Part shown: piece after piece, positions 46,212-55,848 of the stretch
Numbering within the stretch: position 1 is the first letter of the stretch
Layout of the letters: each line of letters begins with the position of its first letter
Origin: Methanomassiliicoccales archaeon
GTDB taxonomy: Archaea; Thermoplasmatota; Thermoplasmata; RBG-16-68-12; SOIM01
NCBI GenBank assembly: GCA_030593295.1
Contig: JAUVHO010000001.1
Coordinates: 49,111 to 113,110, forward strand
DNA: 64,000 bases
Reading direction: 5' to 3'
The notes under the pieces: model-generated
What the model was told of the DNA's origin: nothing
Database searches by the model: none
The model's input: the letters and a program-made list of their open reading frames with translations, nothing else
Made by a program: the position numbers and the translations under genes

Positions 46212-48104
46212 TCAGTTCTGGATTTGAATCGTGCCATCAGCGATAGCGTGGACCCACAATGCTTCGCCGGCTGTCAGCAAGTGGGCATCATTGACCTTTT
46301 GAAGATTGAATGGACCGCTCGGTGAATATGCTTCCACACGATCGTAGGAGATCCCGCTCAAGAGGTTCCCTACCGTACGCTGGGTCATGGACGGGAAGCC
46401 GATCAGGTTCCAGCCGGCCTTGATCTGTATGGAGATCTGGGGTTGAACAACGCCTGTGACCGTCCAAATGCCGGACTGGGGGCCAAAGACCCAGATCCCC
46501 ATGCTCTCATCGACGTAGGTCAGGTCATTGAACGGTTTTGATGGAGTGTATGATTTCCAAGGGTTCAGTTGGTCCCCGGTGTCGTATGCCCACAGGGCAC
46601 CATTCTGTTGAAGCTGGAGCATTGACGCCGGATCGGTGTAGCTTGTCTGGAATGGAATGGAAACCAAGTTCGCATTGGAGGCGGTCATGATGCGGCATTT
46701 ACCGCCAGCTACGCGCGAGGTGTTCCTCCACCCCTGATAGTCCCTCGTTGTGATTTGATAGAAGAGGTTGTCGGGATCCATCCCGCCGCCCACATGAACG
46801 AAGCTGGTCGTACCGGCGAAGACCACGCCAATGGGTGTGGTGTTGAAGGATCCGTATCCGCAGAAGAGGCTGTTCCTGCCGAGGTAGATCTCATAGACGA
46901 ACACATCCGCTTCTCCGCCACCATCGTCGGGTGACAAGGACCATTCCAGAACGATATCTTGCTTGCTCACTGACAATTCAACTTTCTGAAGATCCGCAAC
47001 CTCCGGCGGATTCCCGCTTGGCATCTTGTTGAACTCGTCCAGGATCATGTACGCCCTGTAGCTGGTCACCCATGATTCGTCCGTGTTGTCCGGGTCCCCG
47101 TAGTTGGTGGGCAGGCCGCCGTCATCGTCCCCGTCCGCTGCCATCTGCCTGTCCGTTAGGTTGAGGAAGTTGAGATAATAGATGTCCTCGCCGGTGATGT
47201 CCCAGATTCCGAGATGGCCTCCGGCGTACCATGCTTCCCAGCCTACCTGACTCCTTCCGGGACCAGAACCTGGATTCACCACTTGTGTCTCTAAGAACGG
47301 TCCATATGTCTGCATCCAGGTCACGTTGGGGAACTCCTGCATGCTTGACTTCCATATGCCCCACATCGAGGTCCCGCCCGCAAGCGCCCAGCTTTCGGTT
47401 GACAGCAAAGAGGGATCGTTCTCCATCTCTGTCATTGTAGCATTGCCGTATCCAACTGCTTCCCATCTTGCTGTAGCATTGCCGGTATCCAGAGCATACA
47501 TGTACATGTTGCCCGCAGCCCAACCACGGATATGGACCCGGGTCTCGAAAGGAAAGAGGAAGATATCGGGTTCCATGCCACTGACACTGGATATGAACTG
47601 CATTGATGCATTCGCGTACCAGCTGTACGTCCAATTATTGTATGCGTTGCGGAATCTCTGTTCGGCTGCGAGGGCCCAAGAGGAGCTGTAGACCTTTCCC
47701 GAATCGGGCTCCAGCCAAGCAGGGTGAGCAATCGAGTAGTTCCAAGCGTTCAGAACACTAGGAAAGTAAGTGTTGTCACCAGTCAGTTCATAGTACCTAC
47801 ACCAGACCCAGATGGACTCAAGGGTGTTATCGGTGTTCTCGAATGCGATGTCCTCTGCCTCATTCATCCCTCCGTCCACACCTTGCAGTGTTGCGAAGAA
47901 CTGCGCCGTTTTCGTGAAGTTATCGAGGTGCCAGTCCACTTGGGCAGGCAAGGGTCCAATATCCGAGTTCGACCGATCGACTTCAATTGTATCACTCAAA
48001 GAGGGCGATGTCGCAAATCCAGATAGACCCAGTACAAGACTGAGAGTTATGAGAATCAAGCCCACTTGTCGCCCAGAGCCACCAAGAAGCATCTCCTTAC
48101 CCAA
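46212..48104 (-). CDS. Secreted protein: unknown N-terminal module, FN3-like domain, shared C-terminal 'GWNL(I/V)GFPS' module
   Basis: Signal peptide 'VGLILITLSLVLGLSGFA'. The C-terminal 150 aa or so is homologous to the C-termini of 51281-53491 and 53604-55571. Confidence 0.7.
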   Translation of the reverse strand: MGKEMLLGGSGRQVGLILITLSLVLGLSGFATSPSLSDTIEVDRSNSDIGPLPAQVDWHLDNFTKTAQFFATLQGVDGGMNEAEDIAFENTDNTLESIWVWCRYYELTGDNTYFPSVLNAWNYSIAHPAWLEPDSGKVYSSSWALAAEQRFRNAYNNWTYSWYANASMQFISSVSGMEPDIFLFPFETRVHIRGWAAGNMYMYALDTGNATARWEAVGYGNATMTEMENDPSLLSTESWALAGGTSMWGIWKSSMQEFPNVTWMQTYGPFLETQVVNPGSGPGRSQVGWEAWYAGGHLGIWDITGEDIYYLNFLNLTDRQMAADGDDDGGLPTNYGDPDNTDESWVTSYRAYMILDEFNKMPSGNPPEVADLQKVELSVSKQDIVLEWSLSPDDGGGEADVFVYEIYLGRNSLFCGYGSFNTTPIGVVFAGTTSFVHVGGGMDPDNLFYQITTRDYQGWRNTSRVAGGKCRIMTASNANLVSIPFQTSYTDPASMLQLQQNGALWAYDTGDQLNPWKSYTPSKPFNDLTYVDESMGIWVFGPQSGIWTVTGVVQPQISIQIKAGWNLIGFPSMTQRTVGNLLSGISYDRVEAYSPSGPFNLQKVNDAHLLTAGEALWVHAIADGTIQIQN

Positions 48105-48126
48105 GAACCAGAACCCGTTTCTCGGA

Positions 48127-49002
48127 TTAAAGGCTAACCGTTTCCATTGCCAACTTCCTCAGCCTCTTTACCCTCTCCTCCATCGGGGGATGAGTAGAGA
48201 ACATCCTGGCAAGCATGTTACCGCGGAATGGATTCACTATGAAAAGCGATGATGAAGCCGGATTCCCCCTCGTTATGGGTTTCCTCTTGTTGGCATGCTC
48301 GAGCTTGAGCAAAGCGTCCGCAAGGTCGTTGGGCCTGTGAATGGTCATTGCACCCGTCCGATCCGCCTTGTACTCCCTGCTTCTGGATATCGCCAGGCGT
48401 ATAAGCATAGCCGCAAGGGGTGCCGTGATGGCCACTACGATGATGAGGAGGAGGGTCCCGGCATCGGCCCTTCTCCTTCCAAGTATCATGTTCCACCAGA
48501 AGATCCTAGCCAGGAAGGCGATGGCTCCGGCAACGGTGGCGGCCACGGTCATCACAAGGATGTCCCTGTTCTTCACATGGGCGAGCTCGTGCGCAACCAC
48601 CCCGTCCAGTTCCCGGTCATTGAGCATCTTGAGCAGTCCGTTCGTTACTGCCACGATGGCCTTGCTCGGATTCCTTCCAGTGGCGAAGGCATTTGGGGTG
48701 TCAGAAGGTATGATGGCGATCCTGGGTTCAGGAAGACCGTAGAACGAATTCACCCTCTGGACGCTCTTGTAGAGCCTCGGAGCTTCCCTGGGTGTGGCTA
48801 TCTTGGCCTTGTACGACCACATGATTATCCTGTCGCTATAGAAGTAAGAGATGACATTGATGGCTATCGCCATACCAAGAAAGAGCGCAATTGCGAACCA
48901 CCAAAAGTCTCCGAAGAAGAATCCACCCAGGACCCAGCCTATGAGAACGAATATCGATATCAACACCATGAACAGACCGAATACTCTCATGTTTGGATGC
49001 AT
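48127..49002 (-). CDS. htpX: M48 zinc metalloprotease HtpX
   Basis: Four TM helices, 'HELAHVKNRD' (HExxH) and a downstream 'EYKADR'. Confidence 0.92.
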   Translation of the reverse strand: MHPNMRVFGLFMVLISIFVLIGWVLGGFFFGDFWWFAIALFLGMAIAINVISYFYSDRIIMWSYKAKIATPREAPRLYKSVQRVNSFYGLPEPRIAIIPSDTPNAFATGRNPSKAIVAVTNGLLKMLNDRELDGVVAHELAHVKNRDILVMTVAATVAGAIAFLARIFWWNMILGRRRADAGTLLLIIVVAITAPLAAMLIRLAISRSREYKADRTGAMTIHRPNDLADALLKLEHANKRKPITRGNPASSSLFIVNPFRGNMLARMFSTHPPMEERVKRLRKLAMETVSL

Positions 49003-49077
49003 TGCACCCTCATATCACCGAATGTTGCATATTAAGATTTCGAAGTCCGCGAAGAAGATCGCACTCTGGCTCCATGA

Positions 49078-50937
49078 TCATTTCTGGATTTCGATGTCGC
49101 CCGGGGGCAGTATCCTGACCATCTCGTCGATGGGGACCTGGAACATCTGGCTCAGCTCTCTTGCGATGGTCTCCTTCTTCGTTTCCCCTGGTTTAAGTAC
49201 GATGACTCGCTCGCTTTGAGCCTCCAGAGCACTTCTCGGACCGCACATGACCTTCCTTGCGTCCTGGTAGTATATCTCGCCGACAGCGACCTCCATCTCC
49301 AGATCACGGAAATGATTCCTTTTACCTCTGATCACGAAGGCACCTTTCGGCAGGAACTCCCCCGATTCTGGGTGCTTGCTGACCTGCTCTGGCTTGACCC
49401 AATACGCTATACCTCCGGCCAGCTTCGAGCTCCAGGCCTTTGAGAAGGTTACCGCGAACTGACACGCCTCCTTCAAGGTGACTTCACCGGCACTGGACCC
49501 GCCCTTTATCACCACACTCGGCGCACCCCTGACCTCGGCGTGGGCGAACCTGTCGCCATCCTTGAGGTGCTTCTTCACGATCCTGTCATTGCTCCTGGCG
49601 TCCCTCCCGGCTATGACCAGATTTCCTTCGCTTGATATGAACCATCTGTACGCGTCGAACCAGTACTGCTTCGTGGGTTCTATCCTGGGATACTTCTCCC
49701 TTCTGGCCCTCTGCTTCGCAGCCTTCTCTATTTCCTCCTGGGTCTCGACGATGACGTCCTTCAGTCTTCCCCTCTTGGCCTTCTGCTTCTTGGCCTTCTC
49801 GTAGAAGATGTTGGCGTTGTCATAGACGCTCTTGTTGTATTGGAGGGCGAATTTCTTTCCGTTGGGGAGGACGATGGATGCCGTGTGTTTCTTATGGTCA
49901 ATGGATTCGATCAGGGGGTCCTTGGTCTTGCCGGAGCGTAGCTCTATCAGCACTAATTCGAAGGGCCCTGGATTCGCGTGGATGTAGTCCGCAACCTCCC
50001 TGTACTGTGTTTCTTTCTCAATTGATTCTTTGATGGCCACTTCCTGCTGTCTTATCATCCTCTCGAATCTGGCGGTCTCGTCATCCTCCTCGACCTCTTC
50101 CACATCCTCGGTGATGGAGGAGACAAAGCTCTTCAAGGCTTCTGAAAAAGATTCTGATGAGATGATGTCCAGTCCCTCGTGCACCTTCAGGGGAATGGGA
50201 GTGGCATCGATGGTCTCCTCCTCTTGGATAACCAGTGTAGGTGACAGCTCGGTCTGGATGGACTTGAAAATGCCCTGCAATTCCTGGTGGACCCGGCTAA
50301 TCTGGTCACCGGACAGTTCATTGGCAGGAGATTTCTTGTCGATATCGGATCGAAGGCACAGTTCCTCCGAGTACTGGCCACCGAGGTTCATATCGAGAGC
50401 CAATGTCCTGACGAGATCTTTATCGGATTCCTTGATGATTGAGCCGAACTCTTCCAGTGAAAGCGATTTGGGATCGTGGTGGCTCGGCGGGAATTTGTAT
50501 TCCTCGCCTATCTTAATCTCCCTGCTGCTCCAGGACTCCCTTCTGAAATGGTTGACGATCTTACCATCCTGGATGAGAACGACGTTCCCCTTTCCGAACA
50601 GCTCGTAGATCAGCTCGAAGTTCTCTTTCTTCTCGAAACCGATTACGACGACCCTATCGAAATCATGTTGTCTTACGGAAACCAATCTTGCGTTGGACAG
50701 GTGTTTTCTCAGGACCATAGCGAATGTTCCAGGTTGGCCCTCACCCTTCTTGTGATCACGAATGAAGAACCATTTCCCCGCCTTGGTGAATATGGCCTTC
50801 TTTCCGTAGTCCTTGGAGCTCGCTCTGATCGAGAGCTCATCACCGGTCTGATAGGCCTTGTCGAATCGGCCTCCGATCAAGGACTGCAGCTCTTGTACGA
50901 CCGCCATTAGGTCGAAGCTGCTCATCGCTTTCTTCAT
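49078..50937 (-). CDS. NFACT-family protein (FbpA / Rqc2 / RqcH homolog)
   Basis: NFACT-N start 'MSSFDLMAVVQEL', a central coiled coil, and an NFACT-R/DUF814-like segment 'GRDARSNDRIVKKHLKDGDRFAHAEVRGAPSVVIK'. The ORF track starts at 51033; Met at 50937 or 50925 is likelier. Confidence 0.85.
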   Translation of the reverse strand: MKKAMSSFDLMAVVQELQSLIGGRFDKAYQTGDELSIRASSKDYGKKAIFTKAGKWFFIRDHKKGEGQPGTFAMVLRKHLSNARLVSVRQHDFDRVVVIGFEKKENFELIYELFGKGNVVLIQDGKIVNHFRRESWSSREIKIGEEYKFPPSHHDPKSLSLEEFGSIIKESDKDLVRTLALDMNLGGQYSEELCLRSDIDKKSPANELSGDQISRVHQELQGIFKSIQTELSPTLVIQEEETIDATPIPLKVHEGLDIISSESFSEALKSFVSSITEDVEEVEEDDETARFERMIRQQEVAIKESIEKETQYREVADYIHANPGPFELVLIELRSGKTKDPLIESIDHKKHTASIVLPNGKKFALQYNKSVYDNANIFYEKAKKQKAKRGRLKDVIVETQEEIEKAAKQRARREKYPRIEPTKQYWFDAYRWFISSEGNLVIAGRDARSNDRIVKKHLKDGDRFAHAEVRGAPSVVIKGGSSAGEVTLKEACQFAVTFSKAWSSKLAGGIAYWVKPEQVSKHPESGEFLPKGAFVIRGKRNHFRDLEMEVAVGEIYYQDARKVMCGPRSALEAQSERVIVLKPGETKKETIARELSQMFQVPIDEMVRILPPGDIEIQK

Positions 50938-51181
50938 TGCTTGGCAAAAAGTGGAGGCAGTACTTAATCCTATTATGTTCTCAGTCAAGTTCGTCCAAGG
51001 AAAACCATTCAGTCTCTTCGTCAAGAATCTCATATTGCAGCATCATAAATGATTCGTATTCGGATATCTCGTAAGTTGTGTGCACAATCAATTAGATGGC
51101 TTCTGGAGAATAAAGAGATTTCGGCCTACAGATTGAACATAGGAAACATTAAGAATCGAGAACGATTAATGGGATGCTGGC

Positions 51182-51255
51182 GCCGATGTAGCATAGTCTG
51201 GTGGTGCGATACCTTGGTAAGGTATAGGTCGAGGGTTCGAATCCCTCCATCGGCT
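51182..51255 (+). tRNA. tRNA-Thr (anticodon GGU)
   Basis: Hand-folded cloverleaf. Acceptor GCCGATG/CATCGGC, D-arm GCAT/GTGC, anticodon arm ATACC-TTGGTAA-GGTAT, variable AGGTC, T-arm GAGGG-TTCGAAT-CCCTC, discriminator T. CCA is not encoded. The 3' 20 nt plus 3 nt downstream (51236-51258) form repeat copy 1. Confidence 0.92.
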
Positions 51256-51280
51256 TCTACGAGTTTTAGTTCGAAACGTC

Positions 51281-53491
51281 CTAGTAATTGTCAACAATCC
51301 AACTGGTATCAGTTTCCACGTAGACCCAATAGCCCCATCCTGCTTGCATGAACTCTCCATCACTCATTACTCTCAGGAAATACGGTGAAGCTAACGGATC
51401 AAAACCTTCCACCCTAGCAGCTCCGATCTGAGCTTTCAAATCCCCAATGGTATAGGAGGGGGTGAAAGATGGGAAACCTACGAGATTCCATCCGGTTCTC
51501 AGATATATTGTGGTTGTCTTCGGGATGAGTCCCGCGACAGTGAGATTCGACACCTCACTGACGTTTGTCCACACACCCATTGAATGATTGAGGTTCTCAA
51601 GTTCTCCAAGGTAGGGTTTGAACTTCATATGCCACTTCCACTTCTCCGCGGACGAATCGTAATACCATGCCTTGTCCCACTTCAAAGTCTGAGGGACTTT
51701 TCCTATGCTTTCATCTGACTGGATTAGTGGTACGGACACGAGGTTGGGACCTTCCTGTAACGGTCTTGTGAACTTGCCTGCCTGATTCTCAGCACAGCTG
51801 ATGTTGTTGTTCAGATCTACTGCACACACCAGATAGAAGTAGTTGCTAGGGTCACCCTCACCTGCATGATTGTCAACGAATTCAGTTGTACCATTGGGAA
51901 GAAAGGCAACGGAAACATAACCTGACCCAAGGGAGTCATAGACTGTACTTCTGCGGATTTCGTAACTCACGACAGTTTCGAGGCCCCTTCCATCATCAGA
52001 AGACAGGGACCAAGTGATAATGACATTCTCCCAGTCTGTGCCACTGAGAGTGGCCTGGACATCTTCAGGCGGGGAAGCCGGGGGAAGTTGATTGTGATAA
52101 GTTATTGATACACCATCAAGCATTGGAGTCTTCTCAGGTTGCTCTGTGGAAAGAAAGGCCCTGTATCTCAGATACCTATCATCATTGTGCCCAGACCACA
52201 AGGGTTGACCAGTCGGAATTGCATAGTAGGTATCGGGGGTTCCGTCTGGTCCCACGAAGTCCCAGATCATTTTGTCATTGTTGCTAGCTATCTGGAATTT
52301 GAGTTCTGTCCCTGGAGGTTGAGAAGTGGGAATCCAGCTGATATTGCCATATTTTGTGGACAAACTATGCGTATCCAGGACTGATGAATTGTAAACACCC
52401 TCTTCAATGTAATAGGAATCAGCGACTCCCACCCTTCTGCAACCACAAACCACTTCTGACGCATCATAATAGATCTTCAGTTTTCCGGTTTCATTCAATA
52501 CGCAGGGATTGTAGAGATTGTAGGAATCAAAGCTCCCTGGGGGACCCGGACCAAGGATGGGATTTGAATGGTACTTGGTCCAGTTGATACCATTGATGGA
52601 AGTTGCGTATGCAATCGTGTAGCGAACATAGGAGTCATCACCCACTATGCCTTTGGTGTACCACATCCTGTAGGTGTATCCGTCGAAAATCACAAAAGGT
52701 CTATAGATGTACTTCTTGTACACCTCCCCATCGGGTCTCATAACTGGGCCTCCCGGGTGTTTGGTCCAGTTCAATCCATCTGGAGAAGTGGCGTAGCCCA
52801 CACCCGGCTCAGAAGGCCTGAACCTCCCAGTGTACCACATTTTGTACAAGGATCCTTGTCGAATAACGGAACCCAACAGAAGCTCATTAGAATCCCACTC
52901 CCCTTCTTCGCCCTTTTGCATGATGGGGTTCAATGGGCTCTTTGTCCAAGAGATTCCGTCTATGGACTCAGCATATCCGATACTCCAGTTGATGATGCCA
53001 GTTCCCCCCAAGTACCACATTCTGTATATGGATCCCTCTTTCAGAATCCTGGGAGTATGTATCGCATATGATTCCCAGCTTCCTGGGGGTCCAGAAGTGA
53101 GGACGGGATTGTGTTCGTATTCTGTCCAATTCACCCCGTCCTCAGATTCGGCATAGCCGAAACTCGTTGCGGTGCCATTCCAACCTGAATACCACATTTT
53201 GTAGGTTCCACCTTCTTTGAGCACGAATGGACTGGACGCGCCATATTGGTCCCAGGCACCAGGACTGCCCTCAACAATTGGGTTCAGAGGATATTTCCTC
53301 CACTCCGTAGCAAGTATCACCTTCCCGGGAACAGATATTGTGTCGACGTTATACGGTTCCCCCAAAAGAAAATCCTCTTGGGTTCCTTGGTCCCAAACAT
53401 TGCCGGTTCCAACGCCTATGGATAGGACAAGTTGGAATAGGATGATTGTCGAAATCCATTTAAGGCGCCCACATACTCCTCCATTATTCAT
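51281..53491 (-). CDS. Secreted protein: five-bladed beta-propeller-like repeats (GH43/32/130-clan-like), FN3-like domain, shared C-terminal module
   Basis: Signal peptide 'LKWISTIILFQLVLSIGVG'. Five repeats end in 'YKMWYSG', 'YRMWYLG', 'YKMWYTG', 'YRMWYTKG' and 'LKIYYDA'. The ORF track extends to 53683 by reading through the tRNA-like repeat; Met at 53491 is the likelier start. Confidence 0.75.
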   Translation of the reverse strand: MNNGGVCGRLKWISTIILFQLVLSIGVGTGNVWDQGTQEDFLLGEPYNVDTISVPGKVILATEWRKYPLNPIVEGSPGAWDQYGASSPFVLKEGGTYKMWYSGWNGTATSFGYAESEDGVNWTEYEHNPVLTSGPPGSWESYAIHTPRILKEGSIYRMWYLGGTGIINWSIGYAESIDGISWTKSPLNPIMQKGEEGEWDSNELLLGSVIRQGSLYKMWYTGRFRPSEPGVGYATSPDGLNWTKHPGGPVMRPDGEVYKKYIYRPFVIFDGYTYRMWYTKGIVGDDSYVRYTIAYATSINGINWTKYHSNPILGPGPPGSFDSYNLYNPCVLNETGKLKIYYDASEVVCGCRRVGVADSYYIEEGVYNSSVLDTHSLSTKYGNISWIPTSQPPGTELKFQIASNNDKMIWDFVGPDGTPDTYYAIPTGQPLWSGHNDDRYLRYRAFLSTEQPEKTPMLDGVSITYHNQLPPASPPEDVQATLSGTDWENVIITWSLSSDDGRGLETVVSYEIRRSTVYDSLGSGYVSVAFLPNGTTEFVDNHAGEGDPSNYFYLVCAVDLNNNISCAENQAGKFTRPLQEGPNLVSVPLIQSDESIGKVPQTLKWDKAWYYDSSAEKWKWHMKFKPYLGELENLNHSMGVWTNVSEVSNLTVAGLIPKTTTIYLRTGWNLVGFPSFTPSYTIGDLKAQIGAARVEGFDPLASPYFLRVMSDGEFMQAGWGYWVYVETDTSWIVDNY

Positions 53492-53534
53492 GCCCACAGC
53501 ACCCCAATACCAAAGTAATGTCCAAACTAATAAT

Positions 53535-53584
53535 CCTTTCGACGTCGGCTTTGAAACTGAACTTCGAAACCCTCCATCGCTTCT
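53535..53584 (+). repeat. tRNA-Thr 3'-end repeat, copy 2 (att-like)
   Basis: 53563-53584 'ttcgaaaccctccatcgcttct' matches the tRNA core 'ttcgaatccctccatcggcttct' with one substitution and one 1-nt deletion. The left arm 'cctttcgacgtcggctttgaaactgaac' is shared only with copy 3. Confidence 0.85.
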
Positions 53585-53603
53585 GTAGAACCATGATGCC
53601 CAT

Positions 53604-55571
53604 CTAGGAGTTCGTGACTGTCCAAGTCCTGTCGGACTCAACGTAGATCCAATAGCCGTGCCCTGCCTGTAAGAACTCTCCATCGTTCATTACTCTAAGG
53701 TTGTATGGTGGAGCCTGTGAATCGAATCCTTCTACCCTTGCGGCACCTGTTTTGGCCTTCAAGTCCAAGAGGGAGTAAGACGTATCGAAAGAGGGGAAGC
53801 TGACAAGATTCCATCCAGCTTCGAAACTGATATCAGTAAATGAGGGAACAAGCCCCGCTACAGTTAGATTGGAATCCTCAACGACGTTGACCCAGACTCC
53901 CATTCGATGATTGATAGTCTTCAAGTCCCCCTTGTACGGCTTGAAGGTCACATATGATTTCCACATGTCCTCAAATGCGACGTAGGTCCATGCCTTGTCG
54001 AATCTGACTGTCTGTAGAACTCCTTCTGTTGACTCGTCAAACTGGATAAGTGGAACGGATATTAGACGCTGCCCTTCTAGAAGCGGGCGTGTAAACTTGG
54101 CGACTTGGTTCTTCGTGCATGAGGTGCTGTCTGTTGTGTTCACTGCACAAATGATATAGAAATAGGAGTCCACGTTGCCCTCTCCAGCGAGAACATCTGT
54201 GTACGTACCAGTTCCGTTTGAGACCGTGTCATACAGGACATACCCCAATCCTTGGGAATCGAAAGATGTGTTGCGGTAGATGTCATATCGTTTCACGCCA
54301 TCCGCACTGCCGTCGTCATCAGGAGACAAATCCCAACTCAGAGTCACGTTCTGTGAGTTCTCTCCACTGAGGACAGCCATCGGATTGATAGGGGGTCTCA
54401 GCGAAGAAGAACCGTTTGGTGTTGAGAATATTCGGACTATCCCCTGGCTACGACTTCCCGTAATGAGTTCGGGATGTCCGTCAACGTCGGGGTCACCGAC
54501 ATAGAGACTTGCCCCCCATCCTTTGAGCGATCCTGACGTCCAGTCCAGTTCATAAGTCGATGTAGAAACGTTGTATTTGTAAATCTGGAACGATTCGGCA
54601 TGAACGTAGTTACCGTACGCAATGATTATCTCCTCAATCGAATCGCCGTCGGAATCGCCTGCGATTGCATATCTGGGTGTGTCATTTGGCCTGACGGTCC
54701 AATTGTCCTCGACAATCCAGTTGCCTCCGACTTGCCCATAGATTACAACAACTCCGTGATACCCTACCCGGAGAATCTCAGGATTTCCATCCGAATCGAA
54801 GTCACCTATTCCTATGCCCATCGACGAGTAACCACTACTCGATCCCGCCCCTTCCAAACCGTACGTGCTACCATCAAATCCGTAGACCTCTATGTCCACT
54901 TTACCCGTTCCCAGCACGATCTCATTGTATGAGTCCGCATCAGCATTTCCAATTCTTAGCAGGTTGCCAGTAGTGGGCGCAGACCAGATCAGGGAATAAC
55001 CGGAAGAATTCACCGAATATACTATCAGGTCGGATCCTGTGACGCCTACCAACTCATCCTGCTTATCACCGTCCAAGTCTCCTACTGCAATATCATGGAA
55101 ATTTCCAAGAATGCTTAGTTCTACAACATATGATGAGGGGGTCACACCTAGAATATGAATACCTCTGGTGCCGTTCACTCCCCCTGGAAAGATCACTTCG
55201 TTCATTCCATCGCCATCTATGTCAGATACAATCAACTGAACAGAAGGAGAGATACTGGCAGTGGATCTCTGCAGCGTAATATCGGGAATTCTCCGTTCCT
55301 CCACATATCCAACGCCGTCCCGATAGACGTATGCGACAAGTTCGGGTGTGCCAGAGCCTATGTAGTAATCGTAGTTGGTCAATAGTTCAGTGTCTCCGTC
55401 GTTATCCCAATCTCCTACACACAATCCACGAATGGTTACATAGGTCTCATTGATAACTTGGATCTCGGCTTCTTGATTGTATTTCGATGCATATCCTTCT
55501 GAAGGTAGCACAAGAATGGAAGTCAATAGTAGAGCGCCCACGAGCAAACATCGCCTGCCATTTGCTGTCAT
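53604..55571 (-). CDS. Secreted FG-GAP/VCBS-type beta-propeller protein, FN3-like domain, shared C-terminal module
   Basis: Signal peptide 'CLLVGALLLTSILVLPSEGYA'. Repeated Ca-binding-like loops: 'DWDNDGDTE', 'DIDGDGMNE', 'DLDGDKQDE', 'DFDSDGNPE', 'DSDGDSIEE', 'DPDVDGHPE'. Confidence 0.8.
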   Translation of the reverse strand: MTANGRRCLLVGALLLTSILVLPSEGYASKYNQEAEIQVINETYVTIRGLCVGDWDNDGDTELLTNYDYYIGSGTPELVAYVYRDGVGYVEERRIPDITLQRSTASISPSVQLIVSDIDGDGMNEVIFPGGVNGTRGIHILGVTPSSYVVELSILGNFHDIAVGDLDGDKQDELVGVTGSDLIVYSVNSSGYSLIWSAPTTGNLLRIGNADADSYNEIVLGTGKVDIEVYGFDGSTYGLEGAGSSSGYSSMGIGIGDFDSDGNPEILRVGYHGVVVIYGQVGGNWIVEDNWTVRPNDTPRYAIAGDSDGDSIEEIIIAYGNYVHAESFQIYKYNVSTSTYELDWTSGSLKGWGASLYVGDPDVDGHPELITGSRSQGIVRIFSTPNGSSSLRPPINPMAVLSGENSQNVTLSWDLSPDDDGSADGVKRYDIYRNTSFDSQGLGYVLYDTVSNGTGTYTDVLAGEGNVDSYFYIICAVNTTDSTSCTKNQVAKFTRPLLEGQRLISVPLIQFDESTEGVLQTVRFDKAWTYVAFEDMWKSYVTFKPYKGDLKTINHRMGVWVNVVEDSNLTVAGLVPSFTDISFEAGWNLVSFPSFDTSYSLLDLKAKTGAARVEGFDSQAPPYNLRVMNDGEFLQAGHGYWIYVESDRTWTVTNS

Positions 55572-55798
55572 TCTGACAACTCCCTCCTCTCAAATCATCA
55601 TCTGTTAGGTTTTCTATTCCAGACAGAGAGTATGAGATATCAATCATCGAGAATATAACCATTGTGCATGAATTCAGGCTCCCTCTTCCCAAGCATGTCT
55701 ACTTACTAAGTGTTCACATCAACCCAGATGTGGCGGATGAGCCCTCTTCTCCCTCCTGCTCACATCACAAACGAAGATTTCTGACGTTATGTTTAAAG

Positions 55799-55848
55799 CC
55801 TTCTTCGTCGGCTTTGAAGCTGAACTTCGAATCCCTCCATCGGCTTCT
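55799..55848 (+). repeat. tRNA-Thr 3'-end repeat, copy 3 (att-like)
   Basis: 55826-55848 is identical (23/23) to 51236-51258. The left arm 'ccttcttcgtcggctttgaagctgaac' resembles the left arm of copy 2. Confidence 0.9.

Follow-up and report, generated by a model that had tools for sequence, protein, structure and literature searches.

A duplicated all-beta domain at the C-terminus of unrelated secreted proteins in sediment Thermoplasmata: a candidate surface-retention module

Why do secreted archaeal proteins whose N-terminal parts have nothing in common end in the same C-terminal sequence? The question is raised by a 64,000-nucleotide stretch of DNA (here called the window) from a Methanomassiliicoccales archaeon of the phylum Thermoplasmatota (assembly GCA_030593295.1, contig JAUVHO010000001.1, positions 49,111 to 113,110 of the forward strand), in which three genes encode the proteins named here P0001, P0002 and P0003. 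An earlier note, made from the letters alone, had described them as three unrelated heads behind signal peptides, each followed by an FN3-like segment and by one common tail, with no transmembrane anchor at the C-terminus. The three open reading frames (ORFs) are present where that note placed them, all on the minus strand, and their parts are the following, in window coordinates.

46212-48104, minus strand: P0001 gene, 630 amino acids (aa) from a TTG start; signal peptide, head of ~330 aa, FN3 and tail.
46692-47018, minus strand: FN3 domain of P0001 (aa 363-471), from pairwise BLAST and from Foldseek FN3 matches of the family model.
46215-46691, minus strand: C-terminal tail of P0001 (aa 472-630), a divergent subtype with ~32% identity to the P0002 and P0003 tails.
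51281-53491, minus strand: P0002 gene, 736 aa; signal peptide, GH130/GH32-like five-bladed propeller, beta-sandwich, FN3 and tail.
51767-52087, minus strand: FN3 domain of P0002 (aa 469-575), from pairwise BLAST, the AlphaFold2 model and Foldseek.
51284-51766, minus strand: C-terminal tail of P0002 (aa 576-736), with unit A at about aa 575-654 and unit B at about aa 659-734.
53604-55571, minus strand: P0003 gene, 655 aa; signal peptide, FG-GAP propeller, FN3 and tail.
54090-54410, minus strand: FN3 domain of P0003 (aa 388-494), from pairwise BLAST.
53607-54089, minus strand: C-terminal tail of P0003 (aa 495-655), from pairwise BLAST and the paralogue alignment.

Each protein was cut into head, FN3 segment and tail, and the parts were compared pairwise by BLAST. 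The tails matched one another with E-values of 5e-24, 1e-24 and 4e-73 (31-62% identity over 155-160 aa) and the FN3 segments with E-values of 1e-8 to 9e-30, whereas the heads gave nothing significant (best E 0.19), so that a common module behind unrelated heads is borne out. A hydrophobic, signal-like N-terminal segment is present in all three proteins and a hydrophobic C-terminal segment in none, in agreement with the description of secreted proteins that lack a membrane anchor at the end. The assignments proposed for the heads have also held: the head of P0002 matches five-bladed propellers of the GH130/GH32 type, that of P0003 matches FG-GAP (7e-16), and that of P0001 (~330 aa) has no Pfam match and no PDB sequence match and represents an unnamed family. 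The likely start of P0001 is M5, within the TTG-initiated ORF. In the source gene model (P0245) this protein has 575 aa and no signal peptide; its orthologues, of 620-636 aa, favour the longer form, with a start near 48092-48104. FN3 and tail are found in every one of these orthologues.

The first ~105 residues of the common module are a true FN3 domain, a seven-stranded beta-sandwich of ~100 aa. Foldseek matched this part of the family model to 3mpc_A (template modelling score, TM-score, 0.73), 7jgu (0.70), human fibronectin, titin and others, and the PDB sequence-profile search matched it to the FN3 domain of chitinase A1 (E 0.0025); Pfam fn3 was detected in 4 of 30 paralogues. In the AlphaFold2 model of FN3 plus tail (mean predicted local distance difference test, pLDDT, 95.2; predicted TM-score, pTM, 0.89; alignment of 25 paralogous modules) FN3 finishes in one long strand that continues in the tail, and this continuity, together with the high pTM, suggests that the two form a rigid unit.

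The tail itself had been put at roughly 150 aa; a C-terminal module is indeed there, with a length of ~160 aa, and it is a tandem duplication of an all-beta unit of ~80 aa (hhalign of the first against the second half: 97.9% probability, E 3e-13). Each unit has three beta-hairpins and a consensus of roughly 'L..GWNL(V/I)S.P ... v..YD....W ... G.GYWV.V....W.V'. The model of the tail alone (pLDDT 95.7, pTM 0.88; alignment of 26 paralogues) packs twelve short strands, of 3-8 residues each, and one helix into 160 aa. The sequence landmarks listed in the earlier note are invariant among the three proteins, and just a subset of them remains so over the 26 paralogues, in which the invariant positions are S15, W47, K54, W70, G96-W97-N98, P103, E124, L135, G147 and W151. 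Across 138 tails, Trp makes up 4.4% and Cys 0.2% of the residues, N-glycosylation sequons average 2.6 per tail, and three sequon positions recur, each in 41-62% of the members. A first explanation of the tail is a lectin-like or carbohydrate-binding module (CBM)-like domain, which would direct many exoproteins to one common target outside the producer, such as a polymer or a particle (detritus, another cell or the matrix of a biofilm), with no tethering to the producer itself. In its favour, the four invariant Trp and the invariant Lys, Asn and Glu are the kinds of residue that line sugar-binding sites, and the tail is rich in Trp.

If the tail belonged to a well-characterised family, such as a CBM or an S-layer-binding domain, its role could be read from that family. 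No such family was found, and the earlier note's statement that the tail has no known name stands for Pfam, NCBIfam and the PDB, the last by profile as well as by fold. Pfam gave nothing on the tails of the three whole proteins or on distant variants, and the scan of 26 tails at E <= 10 returned scattered chance matches only; NCBIfam, TIGR04183 included, gave no match on P0001, P0002 or P0003 at E <= 1. The Foldseek search of the two-domain model was dominated by FN3 matches, and the tail was therefore searched alone: against 350,542 PDB chains nothing fell below E 0.07, and the best TM-score was 0.16. Among the viral models of BFVD there was one match, a 'putative hemin binding protein' of an uncultured marine phage (E 7e-4, TM-score 0.60). 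Judged by its model against PDB structures, the fold of the tail is apparently new, and the domain was not found described in literature searches.

Several named candidates have been tried and rejected. Matches to designed-Kelch PDB profiles rest on the short motif 'vEaYDP..W', with a score summed over repeats; they were discarded because the E-value per stretch is 160, and the tail model is not a propeller either. SLH, GW (SH3_8), choline-binding, LysM and other named anchor repeats had neither a Pfam match (E <= 10) nor a Foldseek match. As for the lectin-like or CBM-like explanation, the sole CBM in the Foldseek list is a CBM32 (2w1u_B) with an E-value of 1.3 and a probability of 0.05, and Pfam has no match to such a module, both of which count against it.

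The family extends far beyond the trio that had been noticed. A hidden Markov model built on the three tails found 33 ORFs in the 2.14-Mb, 91-contig genome (35 matches in a second genome-wide count), with three of these genes inside the window. The tail lies 0-11 residues before the stop codon in all 33, and a recognisable FN3 domain stands directly upstream in 27. In three genomes of the same genus there are 14, 53 and 40 matches, in two of the same family 47 and 32, in a second family 26-48, in a third 11-15 and in other families of the order 0-12; across the phylum, 23 of 151 genomes have a match, and a second large expansion, with at least 24 tail copies, is found in a genome from another family of the class (G120). 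Among 1.84 billion representative proteins (clusters at 50% identity) the tail profile matched 14,699 at E <= 1e-3, 5,415 at E <= 1e-10 and 919 at E <= 1e-30, and the named sources of the homologues are metagenome-assembled genomes (MAGs) labelled as Thermoplasmata, Methanomassiliicoccales or 'Methanobacteriota'. In 236 of 239 homologues retrieved, the tail ends no more than 8 residues from the C-terminus. Of 20 cases from distant lineages of the phylum, 17 again have the double unit at the end of the protein, and there CARDB, cohesin-like or Big_5 domains stand before it in the place of FN3.

Exceptions to the terminal position are also found. A Cloacimonadota bacterial protein of 3,424 aa (MCF7912336.1) has five internal tail-type copies among PKD and LamG domains, with a dockerin at its C-terminus, and two archaeal beta-helix proteins carry two or three copies. 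Since internal and multiple copies exist, the tail domain is an autonomous fold and more than a terminal signal. The multi-copy internal use in the PKD/LamG/dockerin protein also speaks for the lectin-like explanation, as does one distant archaeal copy that precedes a glycosidase-like region.

What, then, does the tail follow? The idea of a constant tail on a swapped head is directly demonstrated, with at least ten head types on 30 paralogues: NosD/right-handed beta-helix (10), FG-GAP (3), CARDB (3), PKD (2) and, once each, peptidases M14, M28, S8 and M20, VWA, BNR and a GH130-like head. Elsewhere the tail is carried by PQQ propellers, cellulase with PA14, LTD with VWA, and SBP_bac_5 proteins. 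The complete members have a signal-like N-terminus and no hydrophobic segment at the C-terminus. Heads so unrelated in function argue against a substrate-specific binding module. Binding modules are usually paired with matching catalytic domains, and a CBM-like tail would not be expected on four peptidase families, VWA, FG-GAP and beta-helices, nor to keep a strict C-terminal position in which it alternates, as described below, with transmembrane helices and sorting domains; the lineage-specific tail types described below also speak more for a partner particular to the lineage than for a universal polymer. On balance, targeting to an external polymer or particle is regarded as rather unlikely. 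The beta-helix heads have a further consequence for annotation: NCBI names P0018, P0052, P0007 and P0089 'nitrous oxide reductase family maturation protein NosD' or 'NosD domain-containing protein', which for secreted, tail-bearing beta-helix proteins is probably a misannotation and could mislead surveys of the nitrogen cycle.

The endings that replace the tail on related heads are informative about its role. In the same genome, 57 genes without a tail have a head in common with tail-bearing genes, and ~15-20 of them end in a transmembrane helix followed by a charged cytoplasmic tail; for example, on contig C28 a gene of this kind adjoins a tail gene, with a head identity of 49%. Other members of the 57 close with PKD domains or with another module ('GYQVSV...EIGY'). 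In the secretome as a whole, 25 proteins combine a signal peptide with the tail and 25 a signal peptide with a C-terminal transmembrane segment, counts that rest on a crude longest-ORF gene set. Another example comes from bacteria, where homologues of the P0001 head (30-34% identity, e.g., in Ca. Eisenbacteria) end in a type A sorting domain of the type IX secretion system (T9SS; TIGR04183); in Thermoplasmata the same head always has FN3 and tail attached.

Some of these alternative endings deserve a description of their own. Transmembrane-anchored paralogues with beta-helix heads (e.g., C28:42396-46943, C30:18291-21287 and C41:4180-12184) carry long, strongly acidic, Glu/Pro-rich cytoplasmic tails after the membrane helix. 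At least five secreted proteins, with heads homologous to those of tail-bearing proteins, end in a second common C-terminal module, '...LWKFHS..MP...YN.....G.GYQ(V/I)S......(E/F)(I/V)GY' (e.g., C4:1848-4769, C41:75742-78582, C43:60787-62973, C43:70673-72769 and C46:17551-22866), which may be another unnamed terminal domain. The genome has one gene of the exosortase/archaeosortase family (C43:20644-21504; PF09721, 49.5 bits), and no obvious PGF-CTERM motif was seen among the 25 C-terminal transmembrane anchors of the secretome count. A PGF-CTERM/archaeosortase signal was likewise rejected for the tail itself: the Kyte-Doolittle maximum (17 residues, within the last 40 residues) does not exceed 1.02 in any of the 33 members.

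The slot shared with the T9SS domain raises a second explanation, in which the tail is a sorting signal for a dedicated machinery, a counterpart of the T9SS C-terminal domain or of an autotransporter, perhaps cleaved once exported, in cells with a possible second membrane. It would agree with the strict C-terminus, with passengers that have a signal peptide and are for the most part beta-helices, with the number of strands (twelve) and with the position that the tail shares with the sorting domain in bacterial homologues. Among cultured Methanomassiliicoccales, moreover, M. luminyensis has been reported with two membranes (PMC10673518), a comparison in which kinship rests on the NCBI order labels of some related MAGs; the same paper reports M. 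alvi with one membrane and no S-layer. However, when the tail or its units were aligned by hhalign with the sorting domains of P0286-P0290, the probability was at most 0.2%, the NCBIfam search described above was negative, and no sorting-domain structure (Ig-like beta-sandwich of 70-100 aa) is among the Foldseek PDB matches of the tail. An autotransporter-like or outer-membrane beta-barrel, tempting in view of twelve strands and beta-helix passengers, has no match to an outer-membrane-protein fold either, and is excluded because strands of 3-8 residues are too short to cross a membrane, for which at least ~9 are needed. The conserved N-glycosylation sequons within the domain, the existence of internal copies and the lack of linked machinery genes near 112 tail loci point in the same direction, and sorting by a dedicated machinery is considered highly improbable.

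A further line of evidence is given by the separate behaviour of heads and tails in evolution. In G120, 20 tails on diverse heads are 43-100% identical to one another (median 64%) and at most 41% identical to any tail outside, and several heads of those same proteins have their best match outside the genome. In the genome of the window, tails with 84-86% identity occur on unrelated heads. Orthologues of P0001 are discordant as well, one having 90% identity in the head and 50% in the tail, and another 78% and 92%, respectively, with FN3 tracking the tail throughout. In these sequence comparisons heads and tails have separate histories: tails follow the genome and heads follow the family. A recent swap of the P0001 tail with other paralogue classes was rejected for the close orthologues, whose tails still match that of P0001 best; because they keep the P0001-type tail, the discordance is attributed to exchange inside the ortholog group or to fast evolution. 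Swapping between tail classes is seen only at larger distance (P0264).

According to a third explanation the tail is a self-assembly domain, and tails of different proteins would pack into a sheet or oligomer with the heads displayed on an S-layer-like base. The pseudo-twofold duplication and the predicted rigid FN3-tail unit would suit lattice contacts, many paralogues share the one conserved module, and the resemblance of tails within G120 would keep the subunits compatible. On the other hand, a lattice of this kind would still have no link to the membrane, the tails of the genome under study diverge down to 25% identity, and internal tandem copies in one polypeptide are unusual for lattice domains. 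We consider self-assembly improbable, if somewhat less so than dedicated sorting.

The simplest way to account for the alternative anchors, for heads and tails with histories of their own, for a cargo without kinship and for the strictly terminal placement is that FN3 plus tail may be a module for non-covalent retention at the surface of the producing cell through a shared envelope component, a reading to which we give an even chance. The signal peptide would carry the protein over the membrane by Sec export, FN3 would act as a spacer, and the two ~80-aa all-beta units of the tail would dock non-covalently onto the shared component, for which candidates would be a protein anchored in the membrane or a glycan or lipoglycan from the coat of the same cell. 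A glycan as ligand would be in keeping with the invariant Trp, Lys, Asn and Glu. The cargo would comprise beta-helix, FG-GAP and propeller heads, adhesin-like or enzymatic, together with the peptidases M14, M28, S8 and M20. In this way the FN3-tail pair would be an exchangeable and rigid C-terminal module of sediment Thermoplasmata that keeps exported proteins without a membrane anchor. Archaeal surface proteins are known to be held by membrane helices, by lipid anchors or by binding to other surface-anchored components (PMC6098224), and the reported absence of an S-layer in M. alvi (PMC10673518) belongs to the same background. We infer that the tail binds at all, as well as the location of its partner on the cell. 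The suggestion of surface attachment or export made in the earlier note has gained support of an indirect kind, from the strict C-terminus and from the transmembrane and T9SS alternatives, and no binding partner was found.

Several observations weigh against retention. A search for a receptor among the genes next to the 112 tail loci returned just shadow ORFs and other surface proteins as recurrent neighbours, and no membrane protein bearing a single related unit was found when one was searched for. The divergence of paralogous tails within the genome is loose for a module that fits one receptor. The tail-bearing SBP_bac_5 protein sits outside any ATP-binding cassette (ABC) transporter operon and therefore gives no argument for retention. 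Lastly, the internal copies show that the tail is not obligatorily terminal, and a general binding or spacer domain would fit them equally well. A bolder form of the retention hypothesis would make the tail the docking domain of a surface-display system with a new fold, served by a dedicated, lineage-specific receptor in cells that may have no S-layer, with the FN3-tail cassette passed between genes; this is put forward tentatively, as a possibility clearly less probable than retention as such.

Terminal domains that are common to a secretome and that sort or anchor its members are already known, and this one, very abundant and carried by archaea in which no module of the kind has been described, resembles none of those examples in sequence or fold. 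Among the closest in organisation is the T9SS type A domain (TIGR04183, Por_Secre_tail) of Bacteroidota and the FCB group, which likewise folds into an all-beta structure, stands at the very C-terminus of signal-peptide proteins, dozens of them in one genome, with enzymatic and adhesin-like cargo, and holds the same position on the bacterial homologues of the P0001 head. The tail differs from it in showing no sequence, profile or fold match, in being twice as long and internally duplicated, and in its host, an archaeon for which no T9SS or outer membrane is known. SLH domains, the GW modules of InlB and Ami and the choline-binding repeats also consist of repeated units (20 to ~80 aa), usually terminal and sometimes in several copies, on unrelated exoproteins; these Gram-positive anchors bind an envelope polymer non-covalently, the mechanism proposed here for the tail, but they have no Pfam or fold match to it, and peptidoglycan, teichoic acid and secondary cell-wall polymers are all absent from its host. 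The archaeal transmembrane helix and the PGF-CTERM/archaeosortase lipid anchor have the same position and the same kind of cargo, whereas the tail is a folded soluble domain of 160 aa with neither a hydrophobic segment nor a tripartite signal. Finally, in the dockerin-cohesin system of cellulosomes many different enzymes have in common a small module at one end, through which all of them dock onto the same partner; the tail does not resemble dockerin, no scaffold of cohesin-like repeats was found for it, and it coexists with a true dockerin in the Cloacimonadota protein.

Two further observations concern the tail genes as DNA. A tRNA-Thr(GGT) gene lies at 51182-51255, and copies of its 3' end (TTCGAATCCCTCCATCGGC...) recur at 53563-53585 and 55826-55848; the tRNA and repeat regions of the window are 51182-51258, 53531-53585 and 55794-55848. 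The repeats exactly bracket P0002 and P0003 as two single-gene units, with a guanine-plus-cytosine content of 0.48 inside and ~0.54 around. In a related contig (locus L128, 5730-8872) the same tRNA and two repeats are found, and an MNT/HepT toxin-antitoxin pair replaces P0002 beside the tRNA, so the site resembles a hotspot of variable insertions; no integrase was seen nearby. Outside the window, one in-frame TAG interrupts the gene at C30:9849-12278 (beta-helix, FN3 and tail) within the FN3 motif 'GLTNG*LYCYRVSAVNG', and two relatives likewise have single in-frame TAGs in tail genes. At the C30 gene a nonsense mutation or a sequencing error is likelier than recoding, because TAG ends ~38% of the genes in the crude set.

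The tail thus defines a large family that has no Pfam or NCBIfam entry and no solved or fold-matched structure, and that marks ~2% of the genes in some sediment Thermoplasmata. With a name for it, annotators could identify the surface proteome of abundant uncultured sediment archaea, the probable NosD misannotation would be corrected, and cell-retained peptidases could more easily be told from released ones, a distinction relevant to models of protein degradation in marine sediments. If the anchoring role is true, the tail would represent a new type of non-covalent archaeal anchor and a candidate scaffold for surface display; and if the dedicated docking system exists as well, it would add a fourth general route to the three by which archaea anchor their surface proteins, namely membrane helices, lipid anchors and S-layer stalks.

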